64,000 bases of DNA from Candidatus Omnitrophota bacterium (GCA_028712175.1 JAQTQQ010000001.1:96992-160991), one strand, 5' to 3'; positions 43,535 through 59,776 are shown, numbered from the stretch's first letter. Notes: generated from the letters alone by a model not told the origin. Made by a program: numbers and translations.

Positions 43535-43564
43535 TTGACTCCCCAGCACAAGGATGCTATAAAT
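43535..43564 (+). promoter_or_regulatory. sigma70-like promoter (TTGACT-17-TATAAAT)
   Basis: -35 TTGACT at 43535-40, a 17-nt spacer, and -10 TATAAAT at 43558-64, upstream of the small membrane protein, PPIase and tad genes. Confidence 0.4.
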
Positions 43565-43674
43565 ATTAACAGCTTATGTTGTTGTCGCGCACAATGTTTA
43601 AAAAGCGGGTTAATAAAATTTTCCTTGCATTTTGGGTATCTTTATAATATTATAAAAAAAACAAGGAGGATAGG

Positions 43675-43917
43675 ATGCGAAAATATTTAAATTTCTTAAA
43701 AGGTTCCAGCTTAGTGATTAAGGTTGCTGCCTGGATTTCTTTATTTTTTGGCATTGTCGGCTCGGTCCCCTTATTGTTAGGTAGGGTCCCGAATAATCCG
43801 CGTTGGGCGGGGCTTGTCGTTCTGCTGTTTTATTCTTTTATGTTTTTCTTTTTCTTTCTGGTCGCCAAAATATCCGATATTTTAATTCAGATAATTAACG
43901 AAACGCATAAAGATTGA
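43675..43917 (+). CDS. small membrane protein (2 TM)
   Basis: 80 aa with RBS AAGGAGGA 6 nt upstream. Confidence 0.45.
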   Translation: MRKYLNFLKGSSLVIKVAAWISLFFGIVGSVPLLLGRVPNNPRWAGLVVLLFYSFMFFFFFLVAKISDILIQIINETHKD

Positions 43918-44858
43918 TTTTCCATGCAGCCAAGGAGGCAACAGTGAAGAGTAAATTAATTTTGCTTATTATTGCAAGTTTGTTTTTTGGCGGCATTTTA
44001 GGATGTGATAAATTCTTCCCTGTTGCCGGGAGCAAAAAGGTATCAGAGGCAAAACCCGCTGTTACAAACCTTCCTGCAAAAGGGGCCCTGATTGCCAAGG
44101 TCAACAATATTTCTATTGGCTTGGAGGACCTGAATGAAGATATAGCTATTTATAACGCCAACGTACCTGAAGAGCGGCCTGAACTAAAAATTGTTACTAA
44201 GGAGCAAAAGGTAAATTACCTGAAAAACGAAACTATCCGTCGGGCTCTGCTTTACCAGCATGCCCTGGATAAAGGTTTGGACCGTAATGATGAAGTTAAG
44301 CAGGCAATCGAAAAAAACAAACGGGACTTAATGGTTATACAGGATATCAAGGATATTACCAAAGGCATTACCGTGAGCTCTAAAGAGGTCGAAGATTATT
44401 ACAATACTTATAAAGAACAGCTTAAGGAGCCTGAAGAGAGGGAGATTTCCGAGATTGTCGTTGGCAGCGAGCAGGAGGCAAGGGATATATTAATTCAGCT
44501 TTTGCAGGGCGCGGATTTTGCTACTCTGGCCAGATCTAGCTCTAAAGTTTCCAGCGCTAAGGATGGGGGTAAGCTGGGTTTCATGCAGAAGGGTAAGAAA
44601 TCTGCGCAATTTGATGCCGCAGCTTTTTCTGAAACTTTAGATGTGGGAAAGATTAGCAGTGTATTTAAAACCCCCGACGGTTATAGCATAATTAAACTTG
44701 AATCTAAGCGTGGCGGTAAGCAAAAGCCGTTAAGCGAAATGTGGGATGACATTAATCGAGGGCTTGTTTTCTTAAAGCAGCAGCAGGCAGTTGAAGACCT
44801 GATTGGTAAGCTTTCCCGGGATGCTAAAATCGAGGTATTTGAAGGGGAGATAAAATAA
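43914..44858 (+). CDS. parvulin-type peptidyl-prolyl cis-trans isomerase (SurA/PrsA-like), lipoprotein
   Basis: Signal peptide plus 'GGILGC' lipobox, SurA-like N-terminal chaperone region, and PpiC domain 'DGGKLGFMQKGKKSAQFDAAAFS...GYSIIK'. Its stop overlaps the cpaB start. Confidence 0.7.
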   Translation: MIFHAAKEATVKSKLILLIIASLFFGGILGCDKFFPVAGSKKVSEAKPAVTNLPAKGALIAKVNNISIGLEDLNEDIAIYNANVPEERPELKIVTKEQKVNYLKNETIRRALLYQHALDKGLDRNDEVKQAIEKNKRDLMVIQDIKDITKGITVSSKEVEDYYNTYKEQLKEPEEREISEIVVGSEQEARDILIQLLQGADFATLARSSSKVSSAKDGGKLGFMQKGKKSAQFDAAAFSETLDVGKISSVFKTPDGYSIIKLESKRGGKQKPLSEMWDDINRGLVFLKQQQAVEDLIGKLSRDAKIEVFEGEIK

Positions 44859-45760
44859 TGGTTATCGACAAGCAGAAACTTATTTTAGGAGCAGGAATAT
44901 TTTTAGCTATAATGGCCGCTATAATGCTGCAAATGTTCATTAAACAGCAGCAGCAGCTTGCTAATGAGAAGGCCAGGGCGGCGATTGCTAATTTGCAGTC
45001 TAACCAGACAGCTGTCTTGGTAGCCAAACAAGATATACCGCAGGGCTTGCTTATTGAGCCGGAAATGTTTGAAACATCGATTGTCCCGAATAAATTTGTT
45101 CAACCGCAGGCAGTAACATCTTTAGATAGGATTGCCGGCATGATTACGGTTGCCCCTATTGCAAAAGGCGAGCAGATAAGCCTCTCAAAGCTTGTTAGCG
45201 ATCAAAGGGCAGCCGGCGGGAATCTTGCCGGAGTGACCCCTTCCGGCAAGCGGGCGATTACTATTATTGCAGATAGCATTGCTTCTTTGTCCGGGATGGT
45301 CAGGCCTGGGGATTATGTAGACGTGCTTGCCATTATTCAGGTCCCCGCGCAAAATCAGGACGGGAAATTAATCAATCAAACTGCGGTTGTGCCTTTGTTT
45401 CAGAATGTTTTAGTTTTGGCTGTAGGGCAAAATACCGGCGCCTTAGCCGGTGTGTCAGGCAGGTATTCAGAGCCTTCCCCTAGCAGCAATAACGAGAACA
45501 ATCTTATTACTTTAGCATTAGGTCCAAATGAATCAAATTTAATTGCTTTTGTCCAGGAACAGGGTAGAATGCGTTTGGTTATGCGTTCTCCGGCCGATGC
45601 CAAGGTTGAGCCGATGGCTCCGGTCAGTTGGGATAATCTATTCCAGTATATTATGCCGCAGAAGGACGATGTTGGGCCGGATGTTACGCCGGTAGATACA
45701 ACGGAATATGTAGAGGTTTTACGCGGATTAAATAAGGCAAAGGTTCCTTTATCAAAATAA
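44858..45760 (+). CDS. cpaB: Flp pilus assembly protein CpaB/RcpC (SAF domain)
   Basis: N-terminal TM, a SAF-like segment 'LVAKQDIPQGLLIEPEMFE', and a beta-rich C-terminus. Its position is immediately upstream of the secretin. Confidence 0.6.
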   Translation: MVIDKQKLILGAGIFLAIMAAIMLQMFIKQQQQLANEKARAAIANLQSNQTAVLVAKQDIPQGLLIEPEMFETSIVPNKFVQPQAVTSLDRIAGMITVAPIAKGEQISLSKLVSDQRAAGGNLAGVTPSGKRAITIIADSIASLSGMVRPGDYVDVLAIIQVPAQNQDGKLINQTAVVPLFQNVLVLAVGQNTGALAGVSGRYSEPSPSSNNENNLITLALGPNESNLIAFVQEQGRMRLVMRSPADAKVEPMAPVSWDNLFQYIMPQKDDVGPDVTPVDTTEYVEVLRGLNKAKVPLSK

Positions 45761-45821
45761 AACAGGCAAGAGTTGAGGCCGCGGGGGTTTAGCCTTCGAT
45801 TGCCAAAGCCTAAGGAGAAAA

Positions 45822-47414
45822 ATGAGAAAGTTATTTTTTGGCCTAATATGTATTGCTACTTTCATAATTACCCTGCCTTTTAAGGGTTATTCCATTGAAG
45901 ATCTTGCAGAAGAGATGAGGCTTTATGTCGGACATCCACAAACGATTTCCATAAATTCTCCAAAAAGAGTCGCAGTTGGAAATCCTCTGGTGGCCGATGT
46001 CGTTAATATCAGTAAAACCGAACTGTCAATTGACCCCAAGGCGGCAGGAAGCACGACGCTGATCATTTGGGATAATTTCGGCGAGCAATCTTATCGCCTG
46101 AATGTATTTACCGAAGATATGAGCATTATTAAGCGGCGCGTCGATAACATGCTTTCTTCATTAAATCTACCGGGAGTTTATACCAAAGCAGAGGATGAAG
46201 AGGCTAAGGTGTTGCTTTTAGGGACCGTTAAATCCGCAAAAGATAAAGGCAGAATTACTGCCGCTTTGGATCAGATAAAGGATAAAATAATAGACCTGGT
46301 TATGGTAAAAGAAGAAGAGTCGCTTATAGAGATCGATGTTCAGGTTATTGAGATTAATAAAGGTTCCCAGGATGTTTTGGGTTTTACCTGGCCCGGTTCA
46401 GTGAATTTAACCGAAGTCGGTTCCCCCGGGATTCAAGCCGCAGGTACTACATGGGGTAAGTTATTTAAGGTAGCTAATGAAACCCGCGCCGCTTTTACTT
46501 TAAAATTAGATGCCTTAATACAGGAAGGCAAAGCGCGTATTCTTTCTCGTCCGCGAGTCTCCTGTCAGAGCGGTAAAGAAGCTAAACTTGTCGTCGGAGG
46601 AGAGGTCCCGGTTTTAAGCGGGACAGTAAGCCCCGGAGGAACTACGGGTACCCCCGGCGCGACTACGAGCGGCTCAGTTGAATATAAAGAATATGGTATT
46701 ATTTTGAATGTTAAACCACTGCTTGAAGATAACGGACGTATTCATCTCGGACTTGATGTTACAGTCAGTGAAGTCGGTGATCAAGTGCAGACGGATTATG
46801 CCTTGGCATATAGAATGACTAAGCGTACGGCTACAACCGAACTTTTACTTGATGATGGGCAGACTATGGCCATAGGCGGTTTAATTAAACAGAAGAAATC
46901 GGAGGATGTAAGAAGAGTGCCGTGGCTTTCCAATATCCCAGTTGTGGGTGCAATATTTAAGCAGAGGACTAAGGCTTCCGGGTGGGATTCAGATCTTAGC
47001 GAAATCAATGATATTGAGCTTTTTATTACATTGACTCCGCGCGTGGTCAGCCAGATAAAACCGCAGGAGGAATCAAGGCCTAAGATTGCCAAAATTACTG
47101 CTCCAAACTATGATAATATCAAGGATCCGGTTTTGAGGTATTCAAAACTGGTGCAGCAAAAAGTTCTAAATGCGCTTGTTTATCCTCCGGCCGCAAAGGC
47201 CGCCGGATTTCAGGGAACCGTGAAACTAAGCCTTAAGCTTTCGCCGCAAGGTGAACTTTTGGAATCGAAATTAAAGGAAACTTCAAGTTACCGGGTGCTG
47301 GATGATGCTGCGCTCCAAAAAGCCCAAGACACTTCCCCTTATCCGCCTTTTCCTCCTGACATAAAGGAGCAAGAAATTTGGGTGGATATTCCTATAACTT
47401 ATCAATTGGAATAA
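45822..47414 (+). CDS. cpaC: Tad/type II secretin (CpaC/RcpA-like) fused to C-terminal TonB_C domain
   Basis: Secretin core 'LLDDGQTMAIGGLIKQKKSEDVRRVPWLSNIPVVGAIFK'. The C-terminal ~90 aa 'VLNALVYPPAAKAAGFQGTVKLSLKLSPQGELLES...WVDIPITYQL' is a TonB C-terminal fold signature. Confidence 0.7.
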   Translation: MRKLFFGLICIATFIITLPFKGYSIEDLAEEMRLYVGHPQTISINSPKRVAVGNPLVADVVNISKTELSIDPKAAGSTTLIIWDNFGEQSYRLNVFTEDMSIIKRRVDNMLSSLNLPGVYTKAEDEEAKVLLLGTVKSAKDKGRITAALDQIKDKIIDLVMVKEEESLIEIDVQVIEINKGSQDVLGFTWPGSVNLTEVGSPGIQAAGTTWGKLFKVANETRAAFTLKLDALIQEGKARILSRPRVSCQSGKEAKLVVGGEVPVLSGTVSPGGTTGTPGATTSGSVEYKEYGIILNVKPLLEDNGRIHLGLDVTVSEVGDQVQTDYALAYRMTKRTATTELLLDDGQTMAIGGLIKQKKSEDVRRVPWLSNIPVVGAIFKQRTKASGWDSDLSEINDIELFITLTPRVVSQIKPQEESRPKIAKITAPNYDNIKDPVLRYSKLVQQKVLNALVYPPAAKAAGFQGTVKLSLKLSPQGELLESKLKETSSYRVLDDAALQKAQDTSPYPPFPPDIKEQEIWVDIPITYQLE

Positions 47415-47415
47415 G

Positions 47416-49575
47416 ATGGCAAAAATAATAGTAATATTTAGCACAAAAGGCGGTGTCGGAAAAACGCTTATTGCTGCTAATTTAGCCGTATCTTTGACCA
47501 GAGAAGGCAAGCGCGTCTGTGTAGTAGATTTAGATACGCAGGTAGTAGGAGATATGGCGCATATGCTGGGTTTGAGCCCGCAGAAGTGTATAGCGGACTT
47601 GATGAGTTTTATGAGCAAGCAGCCCCAGTTGACTAAGAAGCAAGATTTTATAATTCAAACCAAATTTAATAATGTAGATTTCCTCGCCGGCGTACTTAAG
47701 CCGCAGCAATCCGGGTATCTCTACGCGGAAAAACTCCCCGAAATATTTGCCTTCTTAGATAAAGACTATGATTATATTGTTGTGGATGTGGGCAAGAGTT
47801 TTAGCGATATATTTCTTGCTGCATTAAGCCAGGCTAACCTCATACTTTTGGTCGCTACCCCGGATGTGCTTTCCGTGTATCAAACTAAGTGGGCTTTAGA
47901 TACTTTACTGTTTCTGCATTTTCCCCTGAATATGATTAAGCTTGTGCTTAACAGGGCGGAATCCTTATCCAGTATCAGTTGGCAGGAGATTAGGGTAAAT
48001 CTTCCCGTGGATATAATTGCCAAGGTCCCTTCTGAAGGCAAGTTGGTTAATCAGGCGGTTAATCTTGGTGTGCCCATAGCTATTAATGCCCCTCGCTCTA
48101 AGATCGCCTTAGTTCTATCTGAGCTTGCAGCCCTTTTAATCGAAGGTAAGGCGCTTTATATGGAACGCAAGAATATCGATCAGATCAAGATTAAAGAGGT
48201 GGCACTTGAGAAATCCGGGCAGTTCTGGGAGTCTCAGGATTTAAAAGAATCCGTGCTTGAGCCTGATAGTTCAGAAGATAAAGACGAGATATTGATACTC
48301 AAGCGCCGAATACACAGCCGCCTTTTGGATAGCATGAACATAAAGAGGTTGGACCTTAAAATATTCAGCGACCGCAAAAAAGCCAGGGATCTAAAAGAAA
48401 GGGCGGGAGTTATTGTAAGCAATCTTTTAGTGGAGGAGGCAGGGAGCTTTATTCCTTCCCAGGAAATAAGAAGAAAGCTGATCAAAGAAATCCTGGATGA
48501 AGCTTTGGGCCTTGGGCCTTTAGAGGATTTATTGGCAGACCCGGATATTACCGATATCATGGTTAATAATAAAGATGAAATTTATGTTGAGCGGTTTGGA
48601 CTAATCGAGCTTACCAGCAAGAAATTCATTTCTAATGATCAGGTCCGCACGATAATCGAACGCATTATCGCTCCTATCGGAAGGCGTATTGATGAATCCG
48701 TGCCTATGGTTGATGCCCGTCTTGGCGACGGATCGCGCGTCAACGCAATTATATCTCCTGTATCGTTAACCGGGCCGACTTTAACTATCAGAAAATTCCG
48801 CAAAGAAAGATACAAAACAAATGATTTGCTTAATTTAGGCGCCTTAACTCAGGGGATATCCGATTTTATTAGGGCTTGTGTGTTGTGCCGCAAAAATATG
48901 ATTGTTTCCGGTGGCACAGGTTCAGGAAAAACCACGATGTTAAACGCGCTTTCAGAATATATTCCTGAAGGAGAAAGGATTATAACCTTAGAGGATGCCG
49001 CGGAATTGAAATTGAACCAAAGGCACTGGATAAGGTTGGAATCTCGTCCTCCGAATATAGAAGGTAAAGGCAGTCTTATGATCAGGGACCTTTTCCGTAA
49101 TACCCTGCGTATGCGCCCGGATAGAATTATCGTCGGAGAATGCCGCGGTACCGAATCTTTAGATATGCTTCAAGCCATGAATACCGGGCATGACGGCTCT
49201 ATGACCACCGTTCACGCAAATTCTACCACGGATGTTTTATCCCGGCTTGATTCGATGATTCTTATGTCCGGAATTGAGCTTCCTGCCAGGGCTATACGTG
49301 AGATGGTTGCTTCCGCAGTTGATATAATTGTGCACACCGCAAGGCTTTCCGACGGTTCGCGAAAAATTATGTCCATCGCGGAAATATCAGGGATGAAAGA
49401 TGAGATGCATATAAATTTAAACGAAGTATTCATTTTTAAGCAAACCGGAGTAGATCCTAAAGGCAAGGTTCAGGGGTATTTTACTGCTACCGGTTATAAG
49501 CCTTCATTTTTGGATGAAATCCGCGTGCGCGGAATATCCCTTTCAGAAGATATATTTATACCCACCAAGCCGTAA
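47416..49575 (+). CDS. fused CpaE/TadZ-like ParA-family ATPase + CpaF/TadA secretion ATPase
   Basis: N-terminal deviant Walker A 'FSTKGGVGKT' (MinD/ParA-like CpaE). C-terminal 'GGTGSGKTT', Asp box, and 'MNTGHDGSMTTVHAN' (TadA/VirB11-like hexameric ATPase). Confidence 0.8.
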   Translation: MAKIIVIFSTKGGVGKTLIAANLAVSLTREGKRVCVVDLDTQVVGDMAHMLGLSPQKCIADLMSFMSKQPQLTKKQDFIIQTKFNNVDFLAGVLKPQQSGYLYAEKLPEIFAFLDKDYDYIVVDVGKSFSDIFLAALSQANLILLVATPDVLSVYQTKWALDTLLFLHFPLNMIKLVLNRAESLSSISWQEIRVNLPVDIIAKVPSEGKLVNQAVNLGVPIAINAPRSKIALVLSELAALLIEGKALYMERKNIDQIKIKEVALEKSGQFWESQDLKESVLEPDSSEDKDEILILKRRIHSRLLDSMNIKRLDLKIFSDRKKARDLKERAGVIVSNLLVEEAGSFIPSQEIRRKLIKEILDEALGLGPLEDLLADPDITDIMVNNKDEIYVERFGLIELTSKKFISNDQVRTIIERIIAPIGRRIDESVPMVDARLGDGSRVNAIISPVSLTGPTLTIRKFRKERYKTNDLLNLGALTQGISDFIRACVLCRKNMIVSGGTGSGKTTMLNALSEYIPEGERIITLEDAAELKLNQRHWIRLESRPPNIEGKGSLMIRDLFRNTLRMRPDRIIVGECRGTESLDMLQAMNTGHDGSMTTVHANSTTDVLSRLDSMILMSGIELPARAIREMVASAVDIIVHTARLSDGSRKIMSIAEISGMKDEMHINLNEVFIFKQTGVDPKGKVQGYFTATGYKPSFLDEIRVRGISLSEDIFIPTKP

Positions 49576-49587: not shown

Positions 49588-49932
49588 ATGCGTTTAATCA
49601 ATACAACTAAGAATACTGTCTTGGCAGAAAACGTATTTCTGGCAAATAAGTCCTTATCAAGGATTAAGGGTTTGCTGGGGAAAAAGGTTTTTTTGCCTGA
49701 TCAAGCGATAATCCTTGATCCTTGTAATTCGGTGCATACTTTTTTTATGCATTTTGCGATAGATGTGATTTTCGTGGATAGGAATTATAAGGTTGTTAAG
49801 ATATTGCCCAAGCTTAGCCCAAATAGGATAACTTCCGTATATTGGCATTCTAGTAAGGTTATTGAATTACCTGCCGGAAGCTTAAGCCTCACCAATACCC
49901 AAGATCAAGATCAACTGCAGTTAATAAAGTAA
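49588..49932 (+). CDS. DUF192 family protein
   Basis: 'GLLGKKVFLPDQAIILDPCNSVHTFFMHFAIDVIFVD' matches the COG1430/DUF192 core. Confidence 0.6.
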   Translation: MRLINTTKNTVLAENVFLANKSLSRIKGLLGKKVFLPDQAIILDPCNSVHTFFMHFAIDVIFVDRNYKVVKILPKLSPNRITSVYWHSSKVIELPAGSLSLTNTQDQDQLQLIK

Positions 49933-50016: not shown

Positions 50017-52155
50017 ATGGGGGTAGTTCATAAACTCAAGCCCGAAGTTATTAAGTTTATTGTTGAGAACAAGCAGAATGATCCTTCCTTGAGCTGCCGT
50101 GCTTTAACGCAGCTAGTTTTCGATAAACTTCAAATCAAGCTTTCAAAATCAAGCGCCAACGCTATTATTAAGGAAAATAATTTGAGCATGCCTATTGGCA
50201 GAAGGCAAAAGCATAAAAAAAAGAAATTCAATATGCCTATTTTACCGGTTATTGAAGGAACTAAAGCAATCACCTTGGTTGCTGGGGAGGGAAAAGTGAA
50301 AGCGGAGAGTGCTTCCGAGGAGAAACGGATTAAAGAAGCAGAGGAATGGGCTATGAAATTACAGATCGATGAAAGGGCTAAAGCTGAAGAAAGATTGAGG
50401 CTGCAAAAACAAAAATCTGAAAATGAAGATATCAAGAAGAAGGCTGAAGAAGCAGAATTAAGGTTTCTTATGGAAGAAGCTGCTAAGCTTAATGCGCAAA
50501 AGGAAGCTGAAAAACTTGCAGAAGCAAAAGCCGCCGAGGAAGTTCAGCGAAAAGCAGAGCAGGAAAGGCTGGCTAAGCTTGCCGCCGAGGAAGCTGAAAA
50601 ACTTGCAAAAGCGAAAGCCGCCGAGGAAGTTCAGCGAAAAGCAGAGCAGGAAAGGCTGGCAAATGTTTCCGAAGATGACGCCAGAGAACCTGATGAAGAG
50701 AATGCTGCTCAGGAAGCAGCGTTAAGAGCTGAAAAAGAAAGATGGGCCAGGCTCGCGGAGGAAGAGCTTAAGGCTAGGCAGAAACAGGAAAAAGAAGAAG
50801 TGGTTTTAAAGAAAGAGGATTTTGCTCCTTCTGGCCAATTCAGCCAGAATAAGCTTTGTTCAGGTTTAATATTTTTTAAAGCGCTCGATTGTTTAATGGG
50901 ATGCAGTAAAGAAATTAATGCGGCAATTTGTAAAGAGTTGGGCCAGCCCCCGGATGATTTTTTAAATCTTACGGAGACGTTAATATTCAGGTCTTTATTC
51001 GATAATGATAATATCCCCGAGTTTTGGGGCCTAATCGCTAAGCCATACCCCCGGGAAAAACTTGATAATTATTCTGCGCAAGTCCGGCAAATTAAGAATA
51101 TACAACCGGATATTGTAAAAATTATCTCTGCTGCTTTTACCGAAGCCCGGGGGGCAAAAGTGCATCTTGCCGACGGAGATATTATTAATTTGGACGGACA
51201 ATTACATTCTACATGGCCTACCAAGAATATCCCGTATGATTTTTCAAGCTCTATATATGAACTGAAGAACAACTTAAACAAATATTTTACCCTTGGCCAG
51301 CCTTTAGTTTTATTTTCTGCCGGAGGCTATGATATACCTTCAAAAGATTTCTTTGGCCTGCTTTTAAATGGCAGTTCAGCAGGTAAATGCCCGGCCAACG
51401 TAACTTTGTTCGGCAATAACTTAGAGGAGCTCCAAAGCATGCCCTTAAATGATAGAAAAAAATTATCACTAATTTTTGGGCTTTGGCCTTGGCAGTTTAC
51501 AAGCAGCAGGAAGGTAAAAAAGATCGGAGATTTTGAGTTAAAACACATAGAGGCGATAAATCAGGATCTGTACCTGGCGGAAGTCGAAATTGACCTTTTA
51601 CGGGCGGCTTTAAATCAATCTATAACTTTAAAAGGCTGTGCCGTAAAAACAGCTCAGGCTGAGAAGATTCGTATGGTCATACTTAGCAGTGATCCACAGC
51701 CGCTGGATTTGGCTCAACTGGCAGAGGCATATCTGGGGTGCTGGCCTAATTTTGAGGAGGCATTTCATGATTTTAGCCGTAAAATCGAGCTTTTTGCCTA
51801 TAATAACAACACGCAAAAGTTTTTTCCTAAAGACAGCTTTGAGGCTAAATTAATGGAGCCGGGCGTGGAATTGGAGAAGATCTTCGTAACTTATATTAAA
51901 ATGCTGGAAACTTATCTGCGCTGGCATTTTTTCCCGGCAGAGTATAGGGAAAAAGATAATCTTGCAACTAGCGACTTATTTTACGGCCTTCCGTTAAAGC
52001 TTGAAGTTGGGCAAAGCGGAGTAGTTGTTAAGGTTGAGGTGGCTAAAGAATACCAGTTTTTAAAGGATCTGGAATATCTTATCTGCCGCTTGAATGAAAG
52101 GCAGATAAGATTAACTAATAGCAGGCGCCTATGTTTTGAAAACGCTTTCAAATAG
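50017..52155 (+). CDS. large hypothetical protein: N-terminal basic/HTH-like region, ~250-aa charged coiled coil with tandem repeat, ~430-aa C-terminal domain
   Basis: Tandem KAEQERLAKLAAEEAEKLAKAKAAEEVQR repeats. It sits inside the tad locus between DUF192 and the pilin array. Confidence 0.45.
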   Translation: MGVVHKLKPEVIKFIVENKQNDPSLSCRALTQLVFDKLQIKLSKSSANAIIKENNLSMPIGRRQKHKKKKFNMPILPVIEGTKAITLVAGEGKVKAESASEEKRIKEAEEWAMKLQIDERAKAEERLRLQKQKSENEDIKKKAEEAELRFLMEEAAKLNAQKEAEKLAEAKAAEEVQRKAEQERLAKLAAEEAEKLAKAKAAEEVQRKAEQERLANVSEDDAREPDEENAAQEAALRAEKERWARLAEEELKARQKQEKEEVVLKKEDFAPSGQFSQNKLCSGLIFFKALDCLMGCSKEINAAICKELGQPPDDFLNLTETLIFRSLFDNDNIPEFWGLIAKPYPREKLDNYSAQVRQIKNIQPDIVKIISAAFTEARGAKVHLADGDIINLDGQLHSTWPTKNIPYDFSSSIYELKNNLNKYFTLGQPLVLFSAGGYDIPSKDFFGLLLNGSSAGKCPANVTLFGNNLEELQSMPLNDRKKLSLIFGLWPWQFTSSRKVKKIGDFELKHIEAINQDLYLAEVEIDLLRAALNQSITLKGCAVKTAQAEKIRMVILSSDPQPLDLAQLAEAYLGCWPNFEEAFHDFSRKIELFAYNNNTQKFFPKDSFEAKLMEPGVELEKIFVTYIKMLETYLRWHFFPAEYREKDNLATSDLFYGLPLKLEVGQSGVVVKVEVAKEYQFLKDLEYLICRLNERQIRLTNSRRLCFENAFK
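50503..50660 (+). repeat. two near-identical 71-bp direct repeats (period 87 bp) inside the coiled-coil gene
   Basis: 'gaagctgaaaaacttgca...gcagagcaggaaaggctggc' at 50503-50573 and at 50590-50660, differing by 2 nt. Confidence 0.7.
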
Positions 52156-52675: not shown

Positions 52676-52843
52676 ATGAAAAAGTTCAGGAAGGGGCAGA
52701 GTACACTGGAGTATGTAATAATTTTGGCGGCGGTAGTGGGTGCGATTATTGCTGTGGGGATAATGCTTAAACCGAAGTTGATAAACTCATACGATAATTT
52801 ATCTACTACAATGCAAAATAAAGTAGGCGAAGTTACTTTTTAA
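52676..52843 (+). CDS. flp: Flp-family pilin (55 aa), not in ORF track
   Basis: MKKFRKGQSTLEYVIILAAVVGAIIAVGIMLKPKLINSYDNLSTTMQNKVGEVTF, with RBS GAAGGAGGGG upstream. Confidence 0.7.
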   Translation: MKKFRKGQSTLEYVIILAAVVGAIIAVGIMLKPKLINSYDNLSTTMQNKVGEVTF

Positions 52844-52855
52844 GGAGGTGAAAGA

Positions 52856-53185
52856 ATGTTAAGGCTATTGAGAAAAGGACAGAGCACAGCAGAGTACGCA
52901 ATTGTGATTGGTTTAGTTATTGCCGCGGCGGTGGCGATGCAGGTTTATGTGAAGCGCAGTATTCAGGGCAAAATGAAAGATGCCGTAGACACTAATGATC
53001 CTGCCGCAACATTTTTGGTAACCCAACAGTATGAACCGCTATATCAGACCACAACTAATATGACATCAACCAGAGACGGTACTGAAGTAGCCACGACTAA
53101 ACAGGGCGGAGGCGTAACCAGGCAAATTAGCGGGCAGGATATAAGCAGTAGAACAGGTAAAACAAATATTTCAGCAGCTAATTAG
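52856..53185 (+). CDS. Flp-like pilin with ~70-aa C-terminal extension (109 aa)
   Basis: 'LRKGQSTAEYAIVIGLVIAAAVAM', a Thr-rich tail, and RBS AAGGAGGTG. Confidence 0.6.
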   Translation: MLRLLRKGQSTAEYAIVIGLVIAAAVAMQVYVKRSIQGKMKDAVDTNDPAATFLVTQQYEPLYQTTTNMTSTRDGTEVATTKQGGGVTRQISGQDISSRTGKTNISAAN

Positions 53186-53222
53186 TAGGTTAAAGTAGCG
53201 ATAAGTTTATTTAAATCAGGAG

Positions 53223-53537
53223 GTGAATATGTTGCGCGCAAGATCAAGAGGGCAGACTACCCTTGAAGTAGTTATTTTGATCGGTTTTGTTGTAGCGGCG
53301 TTAATTGCTATGGGCGTGTATATGAAAAGAGGTATTCAGGGAAGGCTTAGGGATTCGACGGACCAGATCGGGGAACAATATTCTGCGGGGTATACTACCG
53401 GAACATATACGACAAAGACTGAAATGACCCAAGTTGAAAACATGAGTGCGGGTGGTGCTATTGAGACAAATATTACCCGTAATAGGCAGACAAAAACCGG
53501 TTCTGAAACCGTATCGGATTTTACTCCGGGGTACTAA
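53223..53537 (+). CDS. Flp-like pilin with C-terminal extension (104 aa)
   Basis: 'RSRGQTTLEVVILIGFVVAALIAM' with RBS AGGAGGTG. Confidence 0.55.
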   Translation: MNMLRARSRGQTTLEVVILIGFVVAALIAMGVYMKRGIQGRLRDSTDQIGEQYSAGYTTGTYTTKTEMTQVENMSAGGAIETNITRNRQTKTGSETVSDFTPGY

Positions 53538-54157
53538 TGAGGCGAGGGCAATCGACCCTAGATTATGTTTTTTTGATTGGAGTAGCGGCTGCTGGACTTA
53601 TTGTTATGCTAGTCTATGTCAGCCGCGGGCTTCAAGGGAGTGTGCGCGATAAAGCCGACCAGCTAAGCGCTTGGCAGTATGAACCGGGCAATACGACCAT
53701 ACATAACAGGCAGACTAAAATAGCAGATTCTGATTCTGAATCCGGCAGCAGTACTACTGTTACTTATGGTAATTTAAATGAACCGAATACAGCTTTAGAA
53801 GAAATATTAGAAGAGATTGAAGAAAAACAGAAAGAAATAATAGAGCTTAAAAAGGAGTGGGAAGAAACACTGGTTAAAGAAGCTAAAAGCGAAGCGAAAT
53901 CTGTCAGGGATGGCGATTTGGACTGGCCCGGCCCTCCTGAAGACGGAGAGTTCGCAATTGTAACCAAAGAGCTGCAGAAGGCAAACGAGGAATTAGGGGA
54001 ACTGCTTGAAGAGGCAGATTTATTGGAAGAAGCCTGGAAGAAAAGGAAAATTACTCCAGATGTTACAGGTGAAACGCATAGCTTTAGCAAGGAAGAAGGT
54101 ACAAAATCAGATTCTAAATGGCAAATTGATGAAGCTATAGGCACTTTGATAAAATGA
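53537..54157 (+). CDS. Flp-like pilin with long acidic coiled-coil tail (206 aa)
   Basis: 'MRRGQSTLDYVFLIGVAAAGLIVM', then a Ser/Thr stretch and 'EEILEEIEEKQKEIIELKKEWEE...LLEEADLLEEAWKK'. Confidence 0.5.
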   Translation: MRRGQSTLDYVFLIGVAAAGLIVMLVYVSRGLQGSVRDKADQLSAWQYEPGNTTIHNRQTKIADSDSESGSSTTVTYGNLNEPNTALEEILEEIEEKQKEIIELKKEWEETLVKEAKSEAKSVRDGDLDWPGPPEDGEFAIVTKELQKANEELGELLEEADLLEEAWKKRKITPDVTGETHSFSKEEGTKSDSKWQIDEAIGTLIK

Positions 54158-54447
54158 CATTACGCAGAGGGCAAAATTTAATAGATTTAGCCTTGCTTAT
54201 CGGCTTGGTGGGGCTGGTAGTTATCGGGATGGAAGTTTATGTCAGGCGCGGTGTGCAGGGCAAGATTAAAGATGTTACCGATTATATTACGGAAACCACG
54301 CGCCAGGCGGTAGAAGATCCTAAGATGGTCAGTTCAACCACGCTTAACTTAGATTCATCGATGGAGTATAAAGAGCTTACTAAGGGCGCAAGAAGTTTAA
54401 AGGGCAGGGAGGATTCGGTTTCTGTTTATAATCAGCGCAGCGAGTAG
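54154..54447 (+). CDS. Flp-like pilin with C-terminal extension (97 aa)
   Basis: 'LRRGQNLIDLALLIGLVGLVVIGM'. Confidence 0.5.
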   Translation: MTLRRGQNLIDLALLIGLVGLVVIGMEVYVRRGVQGKIKDVTDYITETTRQAVEDPKMVSSTTLNLDSSMEYKELTKGARSLKGREDSVSVYNQRSE

Positions 54448-54517: not shown

Positions 54518-55147
54518 ATGTTAAGAGACCGCAAAGCCCAAGCAGTTTTAGAATTAGCTATATTGGGCTCTTTGCTTATTATGGCGTTCTCTATCGCGAT
54601 AAAATACGGCGAACAGTATAACCGCGAGCAATCTTATATGCAGCAGACTTTCCGCGGTAATTTGAAGATGGCAAGAAAAGCCTTGGGCTCTACTTCCTAT
54701 GGGACCACGGATTTTCGCAGAAGTTCTAACATGATTGATCCTATGGAATTAGGGGAGTTACAGCAATTCGGCAGCTCTAATCAGGTGCTTTGGACGCATG
54801 GCAAAAAAGACCCGGCTACTGATGAGCCCTATGAGGCAAAAGGTTATTACCGGTTTAACCGGGGTGCAATACTTGAAGTTGCTTTGGGCCCAGCCCCATA
54901 CAATACATCTGTAACGCTTAGCTCCCATGTTACTACCTCTCCGCATAATGAAACCCGGTATTATAAAGACACAGAGGCGGGCCGTAGCAGCAGTACTAAA
55001 TGGATGGATGCCACAGATACTATTACTGCCAGTATGCCTTTTGCCGGCACAACTGTTTCGTTAAGTTCGGATCCATTCCACGATGAATTAGGCGAGGGTG
55101 GTTTTTATAAAAGCGGTGGTATAAAGCGTACAAAGACTTTAGAATGA
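54518..55147 (+). CDS. TadE-like pseudopilin
   Basis: 'RKAQAVLELAILGSLLIMAFSIAIKYGEQ' TadE-type N-terminus. 209 aa. Confidence 0.5.
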   Translation: MLRDRKAQAVLELAILGSLLIMAFSIAIKYGEQYNREQSYMQQTFRGNLKMARKALGSTSYGTTDFRRSSNMIDPMELGELQQFGSSNQVLWTHGKKDPATDEPYEAKGYYRFNRGAILEVALGPAPYNTSVTLSSHVTTSPHNETRYYKDTEAGRSSSTKWMDATDTITASMPFAGTTVSLSSDPFHDELGEGGFYKSGGIKRTKTLE

Positions 55148-55386
55148 TAAAGAAAGCCCAGGCAACATTAGAATTTTCTTTGGTTTTAATCATAGCTGTA
55201 GGCCTAATTGCGGGGTTTTATGTCATGGCCAGATGGGTAGCTGGGCATATCCCTAACCGCCAAGATTCATATGATCTTAGCCGGAAAGACGCAGGGCAGA
55301 AATCTTCTCCGGGCCAGCCTGAAAGAGTTTATGAAGCTTCAGTTTTTGCTGATTCGGCTGATTGGATCTATTTATTTAGAAAATAG
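55144..55386 (+). CDS. TadE/TadF-like pseudopilin (short)
   Basis: 'KKAQATLEFSLVLIIAVGLIAGFYVMARW'. Confidence 0.45.
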   Translation: MIKKAQATLEFSLVLIIAVGLIAGFYVMARWVAGHIPNRQDSYDLSRKDAGQKSSPGQPERVYEASVFADSADWIYLFRK

Positions 55387-55399: not shown

Positions 55400-56968
55400 T
55401 TGCCTTTGTGCCATCGTAATAAAAATATTCATTCCAAAGTAAGAAAAAAGCTCTCCGGACAGATTTTCCCTTTTTTACTCGTGGGCATAGTTGCTTTACT
55501 TGCCGTTGCCCTTTCTGCCCAAGGTATGTTTAGTTCTGCGAAAACCAGAACCTGCGCGGATAATGCCGCGGACGCCGGGTCTTTAGCTACTGCCTCCATT
55601 CTCGCCGGAGCTTTTAATGAATTATGCTTAAGGAATGAAGAAATGTGGGATTATTACGAGTTGGACCTAGAGTATTACCGGACCATGTACGCCTTGGCAG
55701 ATACTTATTTAACCGACGCAGATACCTTTAGCGTGGCTGCAAAAAATACAGCGTCAGCCGCATTACCCAATATTCGTGACGGAGGGTGCGAAACATGGAC
55801 CTGGCAGAAAGATGCTTCCCTGCAGAATTATAATCCCGACGGAGAAATTAATTCAGCTGCGGAATATGCCCTTGAGGCGGCAAAATGCGTCGGGGCTGTC
55901 GAAGTCCTTAATCTCTATATGCTGTTCCTTACGGATAATTATAAATATAATCAGACTGAAAATTATTGCCGCGCCCTTGATTTTATGAATTCAGTTTTTA
56001 CTATGAATGATTATTTTACAGACGCTAAGTCGGTAGGCTTAAAATATGCTTTTAATAACAGCTGTCAAGGCAGCGATGCCCTAAGTTTTTGGTTGGGAAC
56101 CGGCGGATTTAAAGACGGCACAACTTGGCCTCCCGGGGCCGATACCAGCCCGAACGGCTGCGGTATTACTGTTACCGTAGACTTACCGGCGTTAAAGTCT
56201 TTCGAGGTTGAGCATACTTTATGGAATTATCCCCATATAAAGACCCTTACTTATGCCGGTGTTACTTGTGACCCGGATCTTGAAATTCCAAGCTATTCTT
56301 TTCCAAATGATCCTTTTAACGTTGAAGGCGCATACCGTTTAAAAGAAATCTATAAGCTTTTTTATCTGGCTTTAAAAACAGCCGCAGCCAATGGCATGGT
56401 CATTTATAACTATACTGACGGTGCCCGCATGGTGCATGATACCTGCCATGATGAATTTGGTAATCCTTATAACTGCAATGAACATTGTAATAAGGAGGAG
56501 GATATTGCCACCGCGCGTTCTTTAGTGGAACCTTTGCGTTCATACCAATCATGCCTAATTAATGCATTAAATAATCTTAACTCTGGTGGCGGGGGAGTTT
56601 TATCGATCCATAATTTAAAGGAGCTCAATTTTGCTATTTATAATAATGTTTGGAAAAGCATATCGGCTTCATTGTTCTCAAGTAAAACCTGCGAGGATGT
56701 TAAAGTCCCCGGTGACCAAGACGAAGCTGGGCCTTGGCCGGGGCTGATGATTACCAAAATTGACGAGGTTAAGCTTACCTGGGCGGACTGGGTTACTAAT
56801 TGTACGGTAGTAGTATTTTGCAGGCATACAGATGAACGTACAGGCAGGGTTACTGTTAACAAGGTTACCGCTTTTAGCCAGGCTGAATTTAATGTCGATA
56901 ATCTCGGGGTATTGAGGACTTTTACAGATTTGTTTGATACACAAATTAAAGAAGCAAGAATATTTTAA
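55400..56968 (+). CDS. TadG-like pilus assembly/tip protein (Cys-rich, 522 aa)
   Basis: N-terminal 'GQIFPFLLVGIVALLAVALSAQGMF' Tad-like anchor followed by a large Cys-rich extracellular domain. Confidence 0.45.
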   Translation: MPLCHRNKNIHSKVRKKLSGQIFPFLLVGIVALLAVALSAQGMFSSAKTRTCADNAADAGSLATASILAGAFNELCLRNEEMWDYYELDLEYYRTMYALADTYLTDADTFSVAAKNTASAALPNIRDGGCETWTWQKDASLQNYNPDGEINSAAEYALEAAKCVGAVEVLNLYMLFLTDNYKYNQTENYCRALDFMNSVFTMNDYFTDAKSVGLKYAFNNSCQGSDALSFWLGTGGFKDGTTWPPGADTSPNGCGITVTVDLPALKSFEVEHTLWNYPHIKTLTYAGVTCDPDLEIPSYSFPNDPFNVEGAYRLKEIYKLFYLALKTAAANGMVIYNYTDGARMVHDTCHDEFGNPYNCNEHCNKEEDIATARSLVEPLRSYQSCLINALNNLNSGGGGVLSIHNLKELNFAIYNNVWKSISASLFSSKTCEDVKVPGDQDEAGPWPGLMITKIDEVKLTWADWVTNCTVVVFCRHTDERTGRVTVNKVTAFSQAEFNVDNLGVLRTFTDLFDTQIKEARIF

Positions 56969-57015: not shown

Positions 57016-57846
57016 GTGAGTATGATTTTTAAAATAAAAACCATATCCTCTGTGCTGTTTTTTGCAACATTTGGTCTTATCTCCGTTCTTTGCGCCTCTG
57101 ATTTAGGCGTACCCTTACCGAAAGACGCCGTAAAGATCCTGGAAAAAACCAGTAATTTTGGTCCGGTGAAATCATTTACGGAAGTTTATAAAACTTCTTT
57201 GAATAAAGCCAAGGTCATTTCGTTTTATAAGAAAGAGATGGCCAGGTCAGGATGGAAGCAAAAAGAGGAAGGGATTTTTATAAAAGATAAATTTATTGCA
57301 GTTGTTGTTTGCCGCTCCTCAAAGGACAAACAGGGCCAGGTAGAGTTTACAGTTACAATCAGCAATATCCCTTCCAAGGAAGAATTTTTGTTGATGCGCA
57401 AGGAGAAGCCTGATAAATTAAGTTATATGCCTATTTACCCGGGCAGCGTGCAGCTTTCTATTGTAAACCTGCCCGCAGGAATAGCCGGCGCTTATGAAAC
57501 AGAAAATAGCATCGAAGATGTTGTTTTTTTCTATAAAACTGGTATGCTAAATTATGGCTGGACCTTTGATAATGAGAAGTTTGTTCAGAGCAAGGATGAG
57601 CCCGTTGATTGCCCAAGTTGCCGGAAATTGCCCGGCTTCTTAAACGTCGCGAATAAGCCGAAAATAACCAGTAAAACAAGAAAAATTACCTTGATTTTCC
57701 GTAGAAAGAAATCAGAAACTTGCGTAATTACCGTAACCGAAGTTTCATCGCAACAGGGCAAAACCGCTAAAACGAAGATTACGGATTCACCGAGGAAAAC
57801 CACTATTCTCACTAGCTATCATGCGTATAAAAGTAACAGGCCATAA
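57016..57846 (+). CDS. secreted hypothetical protein in tad locus
   Basis: Signal peptide 'MSMIFKIKTISSVLFFATFGLISVLCASD'. Confidence 0.4.
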   Translation: MSMIFKIKTISSVLFFATFGLISVLCASDLGVPLPKDAVKILEKTSNFGPVKSFTEVYKTSLNKAKVISFYKKEMARSGWKQKEEGIFIKDKFIAVVVCRSSKDKQGQVEFTVTISNIPSKEEFLLMRKEKPDKLSYMPIYPGSVQLSIVNLPAGIAGAYETENSIEDVVFFYKTGMLNYGWTFDNEKFVQSKDEPVDCPSCRKLPGFLNVANKPKITSKTRKITLIFRRKKSETCVITVTEVSSQQGKTAKTKITDSPRKTTILTSYHAYKSNRP

Positions 57847-57997
57847 GGCCCAATCGACAATAGAATATATTGCGGTAATCATCGTGATTATTGCCGTTTT
57901 TATCTTTGCCGGAGTTTATTATCAGCGTAGCCTGCAGGGTAAGTACCGTCAGGCAGGCGATGCTATCGGCGGTGGCGAACAGTACACTCCTCGTTAA
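57821..57997 (+). CDS. flp: Flp-family pilin (58 aa), not in ORF track
   Basis: MRIKVTGHKAQSTIEYIAVIIVIIAVFIFAGVYYQRSLQGKYRQAGDAIGGGEQYTPR. It overlaps the 3' end of the upstream gene. Confidence 0.55.
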   Translation: MRIKVTGHKAQSTIEYIAVIIVIIAVFIFAGVYYQRSLQGKYRQAGDAIGGGEQYTPR

Positions 57998-58013
57998 ACA
58001 ATAACGGAGAAAT

Positions 58014-58859
58014 ATGATTATCTTGCTTAATATCCTTCTTTTATGTTCAGTTATCCTGCTCTCTTTCAGCCTTTTGCCTGTTATTATGCAGAAGATTCAG
58101 TCCTGGCAGCAGAAGAAAGAGGCTGTATTTGCTAAAGAAATGGATAAGATGTTCTATGACAAAAGCCCTAAAAGCATTGTTATGCTCTATTTTATCCTTC
58201 CCTTGATTTTTGGCCCAGCTGGTTATTTTCTTACACAATCCCATATCGTTATGATTATCGGTGCGTTTATTGGCGTAGCTATCCCTAATTTTATTTTAAA
58301 GGCCCGCTATAAAACCAGGATCCGCAAGTTCAATGACCAGCTTTTGGACGCCATTAATATGCTTTCCAGCTGTATAAAAGGGGGTTTAAGCCTTTTGCAG
58401 GGGCTAGAAGTGCTGGTTGAGGAGATGCCTGCGCCAATGAGCCAGGAGCTGGGTTTGGTGGTTAGGGAGAATAGAATGGGCATTCCGTTAGAAGAGTGCC
58501 TGAACCGCTTGGATAAACGTATGGCTCTTGATGAGCTTAGTTTGGTGGTTAATGCCCTTATGGTTGCCCGCGAAACAGGCGGTGAACTGCCTAAAGTTTT
58601 TAGCCGCCTAACCGTTACGATTAGAGATAATCGCAAATTAAGGGAGAGTATCAAGACACTTACTTTGCAGGGTAGAATGCAGGGCGTAATTATGTCATTT
58701 TTGCCGATTGTATTTGTGGCTTGGGTCCTCTCGGTGAATAAGCATCATTTTGATATTATGCTCACCGATGATTTTGGCAGGATGCTTTTAATTATAGCAG
58801 TGATACTGCAGGCTGTCGGCATGCTGTTGATTAAAATATTTAGTACAATCGAAATATAA
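58014..58859 (+). CDS. tadB: Flp pilus assembly protein TadB (T2SS-F domain)
   Basis: Polytopic protein with a T2SSF-like cytoplasmic domain 'LLDAINMLSSCIKGGLSLLQGLEV'. Confidence 0.7.
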   Translation: MIILLNILLLCSVILLSFSLLPVIMQKIQSWQQKKEAVFAKEMDKMFYDKSPKSIVMLYFILPLIFGPAGYFLTQSHIVMIIGAFIGVAIPNFILKARYKTRIRKFNDQLLDAINMLSSCIKGGLSLLQGLEVLVEEMPAPMSQELGLVVRENRMGIPLEECLNRLDKRMALDELSLVVNALMVARETGGELPKVFSRLTVTIRDNRKLRESIKTLTLQGRMQGVIMSFLPIVFVAWVLSVNKHHFDIMLTDDFGRMLLIIAVILQAVGMLLIKIFSTIEI

Positions 58860-58860
58860 T

Positions 58861-59715
58861 ATGGAAATAGCTATATACGGTTTTGCCATTGGTTCAATTA
58901 TCCTGGTACTCTGGGGGATTGTTTTTACGCAAGCCAGTTCGCTTTCGCGTATCCCCAAGGATGCTACAGACGTTAAATTCCAAAAACCAAAATTTGATTT
59001 TGCTGATCTTTTCCCGACTGGGGCATTTTTGGAAAAGTCCGGTATGGCAAGTAGCCTTAAGAAGTCCCTGGATACTGCGCATATCAATATGTCTCCCGGC
59101 GCATTTTTTAACCTAAAGCTGCTTTTATGCGGTTTACTGGTGGTTCTGGTAATATCATTGACCGGTACAGTCAATCCCCTAATAGTAATAATTTTTATTA
59201 TACTAGGGTATATTATCCCGGATTTTTATTTAAAACGTAAAGTTGCCAGGCGTAAATACCTTATTGCGCGCAGGCTTCCGGAAACAGTAGACCTTTTGGG
59301 TCTGTGTATAGAAGCAGGGCTAGATTTTGTAAATGCCGTGAAATGGGTAATTGACAGGACTCCTCATACCCCGATGACCGAGGAACTTGCTTTTGTTGTT
59401 GAAGAGATAAAATGGGGTAAACCGCGTATCCAGGCGTTAAAAGATATGTCGCGGAGGCTGGAGATATCCGAGATAACCTCTTTTGTTCAGACGATTATCC
59501 AAGCAGAACGCATGGGTACTCCGGTAGCTGAGGCATTTGCTATACTTTCCGAAGATGCACGTGCTCAAAGGTTTCACCGCGGCGAGAGGACCGCTTTACA
59601 GGCGCCTATCAAAATCCTCCTGCCTCTCATTTTCTTTATTATGCCAGTAATTGGTATTATTGTCGGTGGCCCCATATTGCTTACTTTTATGAAAGGCGGC
59701 CTTACCGGTTTCTAA
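58861..59715 (+). CDS. tadC: Flp pilus assembly protein TadC (T2SS-F domain)
   Basis: 'LPETVDLLGLCIEAGLDFVNAVKWV' T2SSF motif. It is a paralog of the preceding gene. Confidence 0.7.
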   Translation: MEIAIYGFAIGSIILVLWGIVFTQASSLSRIPKDATDVKFQKPKFDFADLFPTGAFLEKSGMASSLKKSLDTAHINMSPGAFFNLKLLLCGLLVVLVISLTGTVNPLIVIIFIILGYIIPDFYLKRKVARRKYLIARRLPETVDLLGLCIEAGLDFVNAVKWVIDRTPHTPMTEELAFVVEEIKWGKPRIQALKDMSRRLEISEITSFVQTIIQAERMGTPVAEAFAILSEDARAQRFHRGERTALQAPIKILLPLIFFIMPVIGIIVGGPILLTFMKGGLTGF

Positions 59716-59734
59716 ATAAATTGCAAGGCTAAAA

Positions 59735-59776
59735 AGGGGCGTTTCCCTCTTGAAATCAGGGAAACGCCCCTTTTTG
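59735..59776 (+). terminator. strong rho-independent terminator ending the tad operon
   Basis: 14-bp perfect stem AGGGGCGTTTCCCT / AGGGAAACGCCCCT, followed by TTTTTGT. Confidence 0.8.

Follow-up and report, generated by a model that had tools for sequence, protein, structure and literature searches.

The closest described systems to the locus examined here come from the same phylum. Seymour et al. (2023; PMC10066038) found Tad loci in Omnitrophota, with TadB and TadC related to those of Bdellovibrionales, and West-Roberts et al. (10.1101/2023.11.21.568195) showed that the giant genes of Omnitrophota are preceded by a conserved secretion locus with over ten subunits, among them gspD-, gspE- and gspF-like genes, rcpC, a conserved Rotamase_2 peptidyl-prolyl isomerase (PPIase) and numerous small genes whose products carry class III signal peptides. 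More distantly, Bdellovibrio bacteriovorus has tad loci with an atypical TadZA fusion and no TadV, and its Flp1 is cleaved by a type IVa PilD encoded elsewhere (10.64898/2026.07.08.737194). The component list of Tad pili gives two separate platform proteins, each with a single T2SSF domain, as a criterion for the class (PMC10191384). We analyzed a stretch of 64,000 nucleotides (nt) from a Candidatus Omnitrophota bacterium (GCA_028712175.1, JAQTQQ010000001.1:96992-160991), here called the window, and conclude that its region at 43.6-59.8 kb is very probably a Tad-type (type IVc) pilus gene cluster, in a variant in which TadZ is fused to TadA and the prepilins are cleaved by a peptidase encoded elsewhere.

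All coordinates are positions in the window. Open reading frame (ORF) calls and domain searches revealed an unbroken run of plus-strand genes, about 16 kb long, in which the machine parts are all there: CpaB, a secretin, a TadZA ATPase, TadB and TadC, ten prepilin-like genes and a TadG-like protein. The run starts with a small membrane protein of 80 amino acids (aa), which we call TM80, followed by a parvulin lipoprotein, CpaB, the secretin, the TadZ-TadA fusion, a DUF192 protein, a 712-aa protein and the prepilin array; after the first nine pilin genes come the TadG-like protein, a secreted 276-aa protein, a further pilin, TadB, TadC and a terminator. An initial annotation, made from the sequence alone, had proposed a Tad pilus with this gene order, and the domain searches bore it out almost item by item. 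The features are as follows, with an arrow marking prepilin cleavage sites.

43675-43917, plus strand: TM80, 80 aa with two hydrophobic segments, the first conserved gene of the cluster
43914-44858, plus strand: PrsA/PEB4/HP0175-like parvulin lipoprotein (Rotamase_3, Rotamase, Rotamase_2, SurA_N_3)
44858-45760, plus strand: CpaB/RcpC, periplasmic alignment protein (Pfam RcpC and SAF; TIGR03177)
45822-47414, plus strand: RcpA/CpaC-type secretin (T2SS-T3SS_pil_N, PF13629; Secretin, PF00263; TonB_C)
47416-49575, plus strand: TadZ(CpaE)-TadA(CpaF) fusion, TadZA (ParA/MinD-like domain and T2SSE)
49588-49932, plus strand: DUF192 protein, 114 aa, no signal peptide (PF02643, COG1430)
50017-52155, plus strand: cytoplasmic 712-aa protein, CC712, with an N-terminal transposase-type helix-turn-helix (HTH), a charged coiled coil and a 430-aa C-terminal alpha/beta domain
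52319-54447, plus strand: seven-gene prepilin-like array with G↓Q sites; starts 52319, 52496, 52676, 52856, 53223, 53537 and 54154 (by leader)
54518-55386, plus strand: a pair of prepilin-like genes (starts 54518 and 55144; 209 and 80 aa) with A↓Q sites (by position and leader)
55400-56968, plus strand: TadG-like large pilin-like protein, 522 aa; hydrophobic helix after a G↓Q site
57016-57846, plus strand: secreted 276-aa protein with an N-terminal hydrophobic signal, conserved in the clade
57821-57997, plus strand: short prepilin-like gene, 58 aa, A↓Q site (by leader)
58014-58859, plus strand: TadB platform protein, 281 aa, one T2SSF domain
58861-59715, plus strand: TadC platform protein, 284 aa, one T2SSF domain
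59732-59780, plus strand: intrinsic terminator (GGGGCGTTTCCCT, 9-nt loop, AGGGAAACGCCCC, TTTTTG)

The core of the machine was assigned with profile searches and by comparison with 94 fetched loci (labelled L001-L094), 80 of which are related Tad loci. CpaB scored 149.6 bits against the NCBIfam equivalog pilus_cpaB (TIGR03177), which has a cut-off of 71. In the secretin both PF13629 and PF00263 were above their thresholds, and a C-terminal TonB_C domain occupies residues ~451-529 (TIGR01352, 51.8 bits against a cut-off of 27.1). This fusion of a secretin to TonB_C was found only in nine Omnitrophota-type loci among the 94; the added domain might be a peptidoglycan anchor or might replace the pilotin-binding S domain. 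The N-terminal part of TadZA is TadZ/CpaE ParA/MinD-like (AAA_31, ParA and MinD models), with AAA_31, CbiA and ParA matches at residues 2-238, and is followed by a T2SSE domain at residues 364-643 (208 bits); the best NCBIfam match of the protein, to a TadA-family ATPase, reached 332.6 bits, under the equivalog cut-off of 373. Full-length TadZA fusions were present in most of the 80 related loci, including those of Bdellovibrio. TadB and TadC are separate proteins with a single T2SSF domain each, as the type IVc platform criterion has it. No tetratricopeptide repeat (TPR) or other family that would correspond to the TPR lipoprotein pilotin TadD or to RcpB was detected in any ORF of the locus. 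L007, a more distantly related Tad locus of Omnitrophota, has three genes between TadZA and DUF192 (4545-10644). They encode an 800-aa TadG-like protein, a 1050-aa protein that resembles, by eye, a PIG-L deacetylase joined to a glycoside hydrolase, and a small signal-bearing protein in which TPR-like repeats can be made out by eye, a possible TadD analogue.

We asked how widely this arrangement is shared. In a species-representative genome collection, the closest related loci were from Omnitrophota metagenome-assembled genomes, and public records give the name Candidatus Omnitrophica or Omnitrophota to identical or near-identical proteins. The full arrangement is kept in the diverged Omnitrophota loci L087, L088/L089, L090, L091 and L094, where the gene order is the same at 69% identity for the parvulin and 36-47% for the 712-aa protein. 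The comparison with related tad loci, which the initial annotation had put forward as a check, therefore returned the same architecture, and the arrangement is conserved across a large Omnitrophota clade. The kind of locus is already known in this phylum, its Rotamase_2 PPIase included: the five features given by West-Roberts et al. in 2023, namely gspD/E/F-like genes, rcpC, a Rotamase_2 PPIase, small class-III-signal genes and a position upstream of a giant gene, are all found here, and between the window and the Omnitrophota loci of West-Roberts et al. and Seymour et al., which come from the same phylum, have the same components and lie directly upstream of a giant gene, we see no difference in kind. 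A term search of these two texts found no mention of a missing peptidase, DUF192, a degenerate parvulin site, a TonB_C tail on the secretin, the HTH protein or a riboswitch.

The same comparison can be extended to better-studied machines. With the Bdellovibrio bacteriovorus system (10.64898/2026.07.08.737194) the locus shares the TadZ-TadA fusion and the lack of a TadV, whose place is taken there by a PilD that processes Flp1 from elsewhere in the genome, and the TadZA proteins of the window and of Bdellovibrio sp. HCB288 (L015) share 41% identity. In Bdellovibrio, however, the genes are scattered over several loci, with tadC separate, and a tblastn search of L015 found no homologue of the parvulin or of DUF192 and a secretin match that stops short of the TonB_C region. 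The canonical Aggregatibacter tad and Caulobacter cpa loci share with ours CpaB/RcpC, an RcpA/CpaC secretin with the pilus N-terminal domain, CpaF/TadA, CpaE/TadZ, separate TadB and TadC, short pilins and TadE/F/G-like proteins (listed in PMC10191384). Canonical loci also have tadV/cpaA, the lipoproteins TadD and RcpB, TadZ and TadA as separate proteins, and Flp_Fap pilins cleaved at G↓xTAIEY, whereas here the peptidase, TadD and RcpB are absent from the locus and the pilin leaders read KG↓QSxxEY.

The prepilin-like genes are recognizable by their leaders. The seven genes with G↓Q sites encode 43, 53, 55, 109, 104, 206 and 97 aa, and all of them combine a basic leader with a cleavage site, E or D at position +5 and a hydrophobic helix. 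The shared motif is (K/R)(G/A)↓Q(S/T/A/N)xx(E/D)(Y/V/L/F), with Gly at -1 in these seven genes and in the TadG-like gene and Ala in the other three pilin genes. The motif G-(Q/A)(S/T)xx(E/D)(Y/V), which the initial annotation had read in all prepilins, is corrected by this one, and three of the genes have Ala at -1 in place of the Gly. By Pfam, the pilins, which the initial annotation had called Flp, do not belong to the Flp_Fap family. The best match to Flp_Fap (PF04964) among the locus pilins was 14.8 bits against a cut-off of 32.2, and no NCBIfam Flp model matched them; three instead matched Class_IIIsignal (PF04021), one above threshold (24.4 bits, cut-off 23.7). Type IVc pili are thought to derive from the archaeal Epd pilus (PMC10191384), and the Class_IIIsignal matches, together with the failure of Flp_Fap, agree with this proposed origin. 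The leaders fit the class III signals of archaeal Epd-type pili (Szabo et al. 2007, cited in PMC10191384), in which a basic residue stands ahead of G or A, with Q at +1 and E at +5. The machine itself is that of a diderm bacterium, with a secretin and CpaB, and neither EppA nor PibD is encoded in the window.

Other members of this group were placed mainly by where they lie. By position and leader only, the 209-aa and 80-aa genes with A↓Q sites are putative TadE/TadF-like minor pilins; the Pfam scan gave no TadE match among the genes of the locus. The Pfam Tad model (TadE/G-like, PF13400) aligned with the 522-aa protein over positions 1-45 of 47 at a below-threshold E value of 0.097, and with its counterpart in L007 at 0.028, also below threshold. 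The first two pilin genes (43 and 53 aa; 52319-52657) are recent tandem duplicates, 83% identical over 75 nt and with matching upstream sequence, and the 43-aa gene, which ends early, may be a decaying copy. The secreted 276-aa protein had no match in the Pfam scan; its homologues in L001-L003, L090 and L091 have precomputed matches to PF27226 (AF_1845), which are weak in L001-L003.

The initial annotation had remarked that no TadV/CpaA aspartyl peptidase is encoded in the locus. To look for one we picked 29 motif-bearing hydrophobic ORFs from related loci and built a hidden Markov model (HMM) of A24 peptidases from the 27 that were 160-310 aa long; the three member ORFs tested against Pfam all matched Peptidase_A24. 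Of the 80 related Tad loci, 32 gave an A24 gene with this model. In all six frames of the window it found none, the best match (E = 0.05) being the transmembrane segment of a pilin, and it found none in L001, L007-L009 or L087-L091. Among the genes called in a further 10 kb upstream, available in the near-identical contigs L092/L093, no A24 family member was seen. The remark therefore holds, but the absence is less odd than it had appeared. Full 10 kb flanks were available for 38 related Tad loci, and 15 of these had no A24 gene within that distance; the 15 include loci in the complete genomes L015 (Bdellovibrio sp.) and L065 (Acidithiobacillus). There is also documented processing in trans, by PilD in Bdellovibrio bacteriovorus, and in Myxococcus the major pilin KilP still polymerizes after deletion of the locus peptidase KilA (PMC12075869). 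A Tad locus without its own peptidase is thus a common situation, and one with experimental precedent. In our model an A24 aspartyl peptidase encoded elsewhere would cleave the prepilins, most likely the PilD of a type IVa pilus or type II secretion system cluster, or else an orphan TadV.

We next turn to the accessory genes, beginning with the parvulin lipoprotein. Its Pfam scores are 60 bits for PF13616, 57.7 bits for PF00639 and 53 bits for PF13145, and its start in the public protein P0001 is at 43944; looking up the exact sequence from the TTG start, or that of P0121, gave no match. The best solved relatives are PrsA (6vj4), HP0175 and Cbf2 (3rfw), and the protein aligns with their chaperone and parvulin domains over residues 92-307. 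The active site, however, differs from theirs: the motifs 'sHILV' and 'GYHII' of PrsA, HP0175 and Cbf2 are here 'ISEIVV' and 'GYSII'. Across 121 orthologues, E occupies the first His position in 120 and V in the remaining one, and no His is found at the second; the lipobox Cys is invariant. The initial annotation was right about the parvulin domain and the embedding of the gene; the active-site His pair of an isomerase is absent. Because both catalytic His residues are missing throughout the 121 orthologues, the lipoprotein is predicted to be probably a chaperone rather than an isomerase. Relative to the PrsA/PEB4 (Cbf2)/HP0175 chaperones, it has the same combination of chaperone and parvulin domains and a lipoprotein signal resembling that of PrsA; the differences are the clade-wide replacement of the active-site His by E and by S/C/N/T/A, and the embedding of the gene in a pilus operon.

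The link between this gene and cpaB proved to be close. As had been noted, its stop overlaps the ATG of cpaB, by 1 nt, and the pair with this same overlap is kept in L087, L088, L090 and L091; the order parvulin-CpaB-secretin also occurs in L008 and L009. A lack of conservation of this adjacency had been sought as a refutation of its significance, and what emerged was that it is conserved in the clade. The parvulin therefore belongs to the constant parts of the machine in this clade; in the other 77 Tad loci no homologue of it was detected. Its translational coupling to cpaB, and the absence of TadD and RcpB from the locus, suggest a role in assembly of the CpaB-secretin conduit or in pilin handling: it may serve CpaB, the secretin or the pilins as a periplasmic chaperone or pilotin, and would stand in for the missing TadD/RcpB. 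Immediately upstream of the parvulin gene lies TM80, 56-60% identical in L088, L090 and L091, for which Pfam and NCBIfam scans returned no family. We considered TM80 as a prepilin or a peptidase and rejected both, since the Gly of its 'KG' (position 10) is not conserved, which argues against a prepilin, and the protein has only two helices.

DUF192, which the initial annotation had listed as embedded in the locus, is no odd insertion and turned out to be a recurrent companion of Tad genes. The protein scored 51.9 bits against PF02643 (cut-off 27), and its AlphaFold2 (AF2) model (pLDDT 87.7) matched the structures 3pjy and 3m7a, both of unknown function, with a TM-score of 0.80 and a match probability of 1.00. 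Of the 80 related loci, 30 have a homologue; it is encoded on the same strand, usually straight after TadB/TadC and 1.8-2.4 kb beyond the ATPase gene (for example L013 13887-14225 and L028 15424-15759). All ten homologues that were tested passed the Pfam threshold, and they have no signal peptide. The loci that have them belong to Bacillota, Acidobacteriota, Chloroflexota, Actinomycetota, Myxococcota, Pseudomonadota and others, at least eight phyla in total, and for a roughly single-copy family this recurrence is far above chance. A parallel has been reported in Bulleidia extructa, whose tad operon ends with a 112-aa DUF192 gene and then a coiled-coil protein, both consistently adjacent to tad genes (PMC12786226). 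That organism is a monoderm of the Bacillota and its operon starts with tadV, unlike the present one; its coiled-coil protein is Smc-like by HHpred, and homology to the HTH protein of our locus is not shown. These data suggest that DUF192 is a cytoplasmic accessory that travels with the Tad machines of many phyla.

The gene that follows DUF192 had been described as a coiled-coil protein. A variable coiled-coil insert is indeed there, but CC712 is an HTH protein whose C-terminal domain gave a weak fold match to Tn5. The Pfam scan assigned it to no family. In its AF2 model (pLDDT 77) the C-terminal 430-aa domain is well modelled, and Foldseek matched it weakly to the Tn5 transposase (E = 2e-3, probability 0.77, low TM-score) and matched the N-terminal three-helix HTH to the Pax paired domain. 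Among 55 family members, HTH_32 matched 24 and HTH_33 matched 18, the latter above threshold in P0424, and relatives also matched HTH_Tnp_Tc3_2; no DDE family of Pfam was found in any of the 55, and a search of PDB sequences with the family profile gave coiled-coil noise only. The family comprises 840 clusters at 50% identity, many of whose members are about 500 aa long and have no coiled coil; one of these shorter proteins occupies the same position in its locus. An 87-bp (29-aa) tandem repeat at 50501-50716 lies inside the coiled coil, and near-identical strains have proteins of 683, 712, 724 and 753 aa, the difference between 683 and 712 being one 29-aa unit. The length of the coiled coil thus varies between strains.

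CC712 lies between DUF192 and the pilin array in every locus inspected (L087, L088, L090, L091 and L094), and no inverted repeats were found flanking it. Given this constant position and the lack of flanking repeats, we rejected the idea that it is a mobile element. We likewise rejected a role in shufflon- or Piv-like pilin variation, since the 49.9-58.1 kb interval holds no meaningful inverted repeats; its repeats are only paralogue similarity and the 87-bp repeat. CC712 is probably a transposase-derived DNA-binding regulator; it lies just upstream of the pilin array and may control it.

Taken together, the components suggest how the machine would work. The prepilins would insert into the inner membrane and, once cleaved, the short major pilin would be polymerized by TadZA with TadB and TadC. 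The longer pilin-like proteins and the TadG-like protein would form a tip complex, as PMC12075869 proposes for other Tad pili, and the fibre would leave the cell through CpaB and the secretin.

On the downstream side the locus ends at the strong terminator that the initial annotation had named, with a 13-bp G+C-rich stem and a T run; it was read directly from the sequence, an automatic scan having missed the hairpin owing to its 9-nt loop. An IS200-like Y1 transposase gene (PF01797; 59793-60614) lies between this terminator and the riboswitch described below, and a Y1_Tnp gene is found in the same gap in L091, in opposite orientation, and in L001. A near-consensus promoter-like site, TTGACA-17-TATATT, at 60894-60922 precedes a c-di-GMP-I-GGC riboswitch aptamer (60939-61030; 61.3 bits against a gathering score of 59), which is followed by a terminator-like hairpin at 61038-61056. 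About 1.5 kb after tadC, at 61193, a giant ORF with a Peptidase_C39 domain begins; it is at least 935 aa long and runs off the window. The same riboswitch precedes the large ORF in L091 (21322-21413). Its place ahead of the giant gene suggests control by cyclic di-GMP (c-di-GMP).

The upstream side also carries genes linked to this second messenger. Divergent from the Tad locus are three minus-strand ORFs, which take their Pfam labels from L001, L088, L090 and L091.

37753-38688, minus strand: response regulator with a GGDEF domain
38697-40172, minus strand: HisKA/HATPase kinase
40173-41396, minus strand: FIST sensor protein

The same trio is found in the near-identical L001 and in L088/L089, L090 and L091. 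Its conservation beside the Tad locus suggests control by c-di-GMP; the trio is predicted to make c-di-GMP and to control the locus. Between it and TM80, directly upstream of the locus, a 606-aa polytopic membrane protein (41688-43508) has, by eye, the CPBP/CAAX-protease-like motifs EEINFR, WGMGH and HYLFD. L088 encodes a 514-aa counterpart. In L090 and L091, which have no counterpart, the FIST gene and a tRNA-Glu are followed directly by TM80, and so the membrane protein falls outside the conserved system. Farther upstream, inspection by eye showed a long run of envelope and glycan genes at 18800-37600, with several glycosyltransferases, an ABC-2 exporter pair and, at 25755-33086, four large proteins whose CxxxCxxC motifs are radical-SAM-like.

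Several observations weigh against the conclusion that this is a Tad cluster served by a peptidase in trans. Within about 74 kb of genome around the locus the peptidase was not found. The pilins fall below the Flp_Fap threshold and resemble archaeal class III signals, and their cognate peptidase could be unusual. The TadE-, TadF- and TadG-like assignments come from position and leader only, and what the parvulin, DUF192, TM80 and the HTH protein are proposed to do comes from position and conservation. A consensus scan, moreover, counted 46 promoter-like sites in the region where 39.9 +/- 6.5 are expected in shuffled sequence, and because such sites are no commoner than in shuffled sequence, the two promoters of the initial annotation are no more than putative. 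One could imagine that Omnitrophota with this locus have no A24 peptidase whatsoever, and that the class-III-type prepilins are matured by a conserved protein of the locus or its surroundings, the candidates being TM80, DUF192, the 276-aa secreted protein, the parvulin lipoprotein and the neighbouring CPBP-like membrane protease. The lack of an A24 gene in the surrounding sequence and in every Omnitrophota-type locus is what this idea would predict, several conserved proteins of the locus have no known function, and a membrane protein with CPBP-like motifs does lie next door. The candidates fare badly, however. DUF192 is ruled out as a substitute, since it co-occurs with A24 in at least 14 loci (for example L010, L013, L020, L021 and L028). 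The CPBP-like gene is missing from L090 and L091 and had no Rce1-like Pfam match even at E = 5, which led us to reject it as the cognate protease, and TM80 has two helices and no conserved Asp pair. With peptidases that act in trans documented, and type IVa pilus genes common in Omnitrophota (PMC10066038), we regard this idea as very improbable; a milder and likelier novel idea is that DUF192 is an overlooked functional component of Tad machines. Hardly credible at all is the suggestion that the locus is a decaying or non-functional remnant, unable to assemble without a peptidase. The missing gene, the transposase-like gene inside the locus and the IS200-like gene at its end could be read in that way, but all genes are intact, their order and the 1-nt parvulin-cpaB overlap are kept at 36-69% protein identity, and the more than 120 parvulin clusters and 840 HTH-protein clusters imply purifying selection.

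A different question is what the machine is for. Its type would be unchanged if, instead of serving as an adhesive pilus, the apparatus were mainly a device for secretion or attack that works together with the adjacent giant protein. A predatory or parasitic nanobacterium would then use it as a contact-dependent machine of a pseudopilus-like or Kil-like kind. The locus is directly upstream of the giant ORF with its Peptidase_C39 domain, a pairing that according to West-Roberts et al. is the rule in Omnitrophota and that they interpret as a secretion system; a 2026 complete-genome preprint agrees. Seymour et al. link the Omnitrophota Tad genes to those of predators, and Tad machines serve prey invasion in Bdellovibrio (10.64898/2026.07.08.737194) and prey killing in Myxococcus (PMC12075869). 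Nevertheless, nothing in the sequence separates secretion from adhesion, and the large gene next to the locus in L090 lies on the other strand. The terminator, the IS200-like gene and the separate promoter-like site and riboswitch that intervene also mean that the Tad locus and the giant gene are not one operon. We therefore treat the secretion device as a tentative alternative, rather unlikely on present evidence, and retain the view that the region encodes a Tad-type pilus with fused TadZA and prepilin processing in trans.

Overall, these data provide a correct annotation of a known type of Omnitrophota locus. The PPIase, DUF192 and the missing peptidase are no anomalies, since they recur in related loci or have precedent, and for the missing peptidase a related system offers a documented explanation. 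What stays of interest are the conserved accessories, with DUF192 first among them, and the link between the riboswitch and the giant gene. The His-less parvulin lipoprotein, coupled to CpaB in a locus that has neither TadD nor RcpB, is a candidate chaperone for the secretin or the pilins. In over a third of related loci DUF192 comes after the platform genes, which makes it a lead for tractable Tad systems that carry it. Finally, c-di-GMP would be tied to the giant genes of Omnitrophota in two ways, through the FIST-kinase-GGDEF genes on one side of the locus and the riboswitch on the other.

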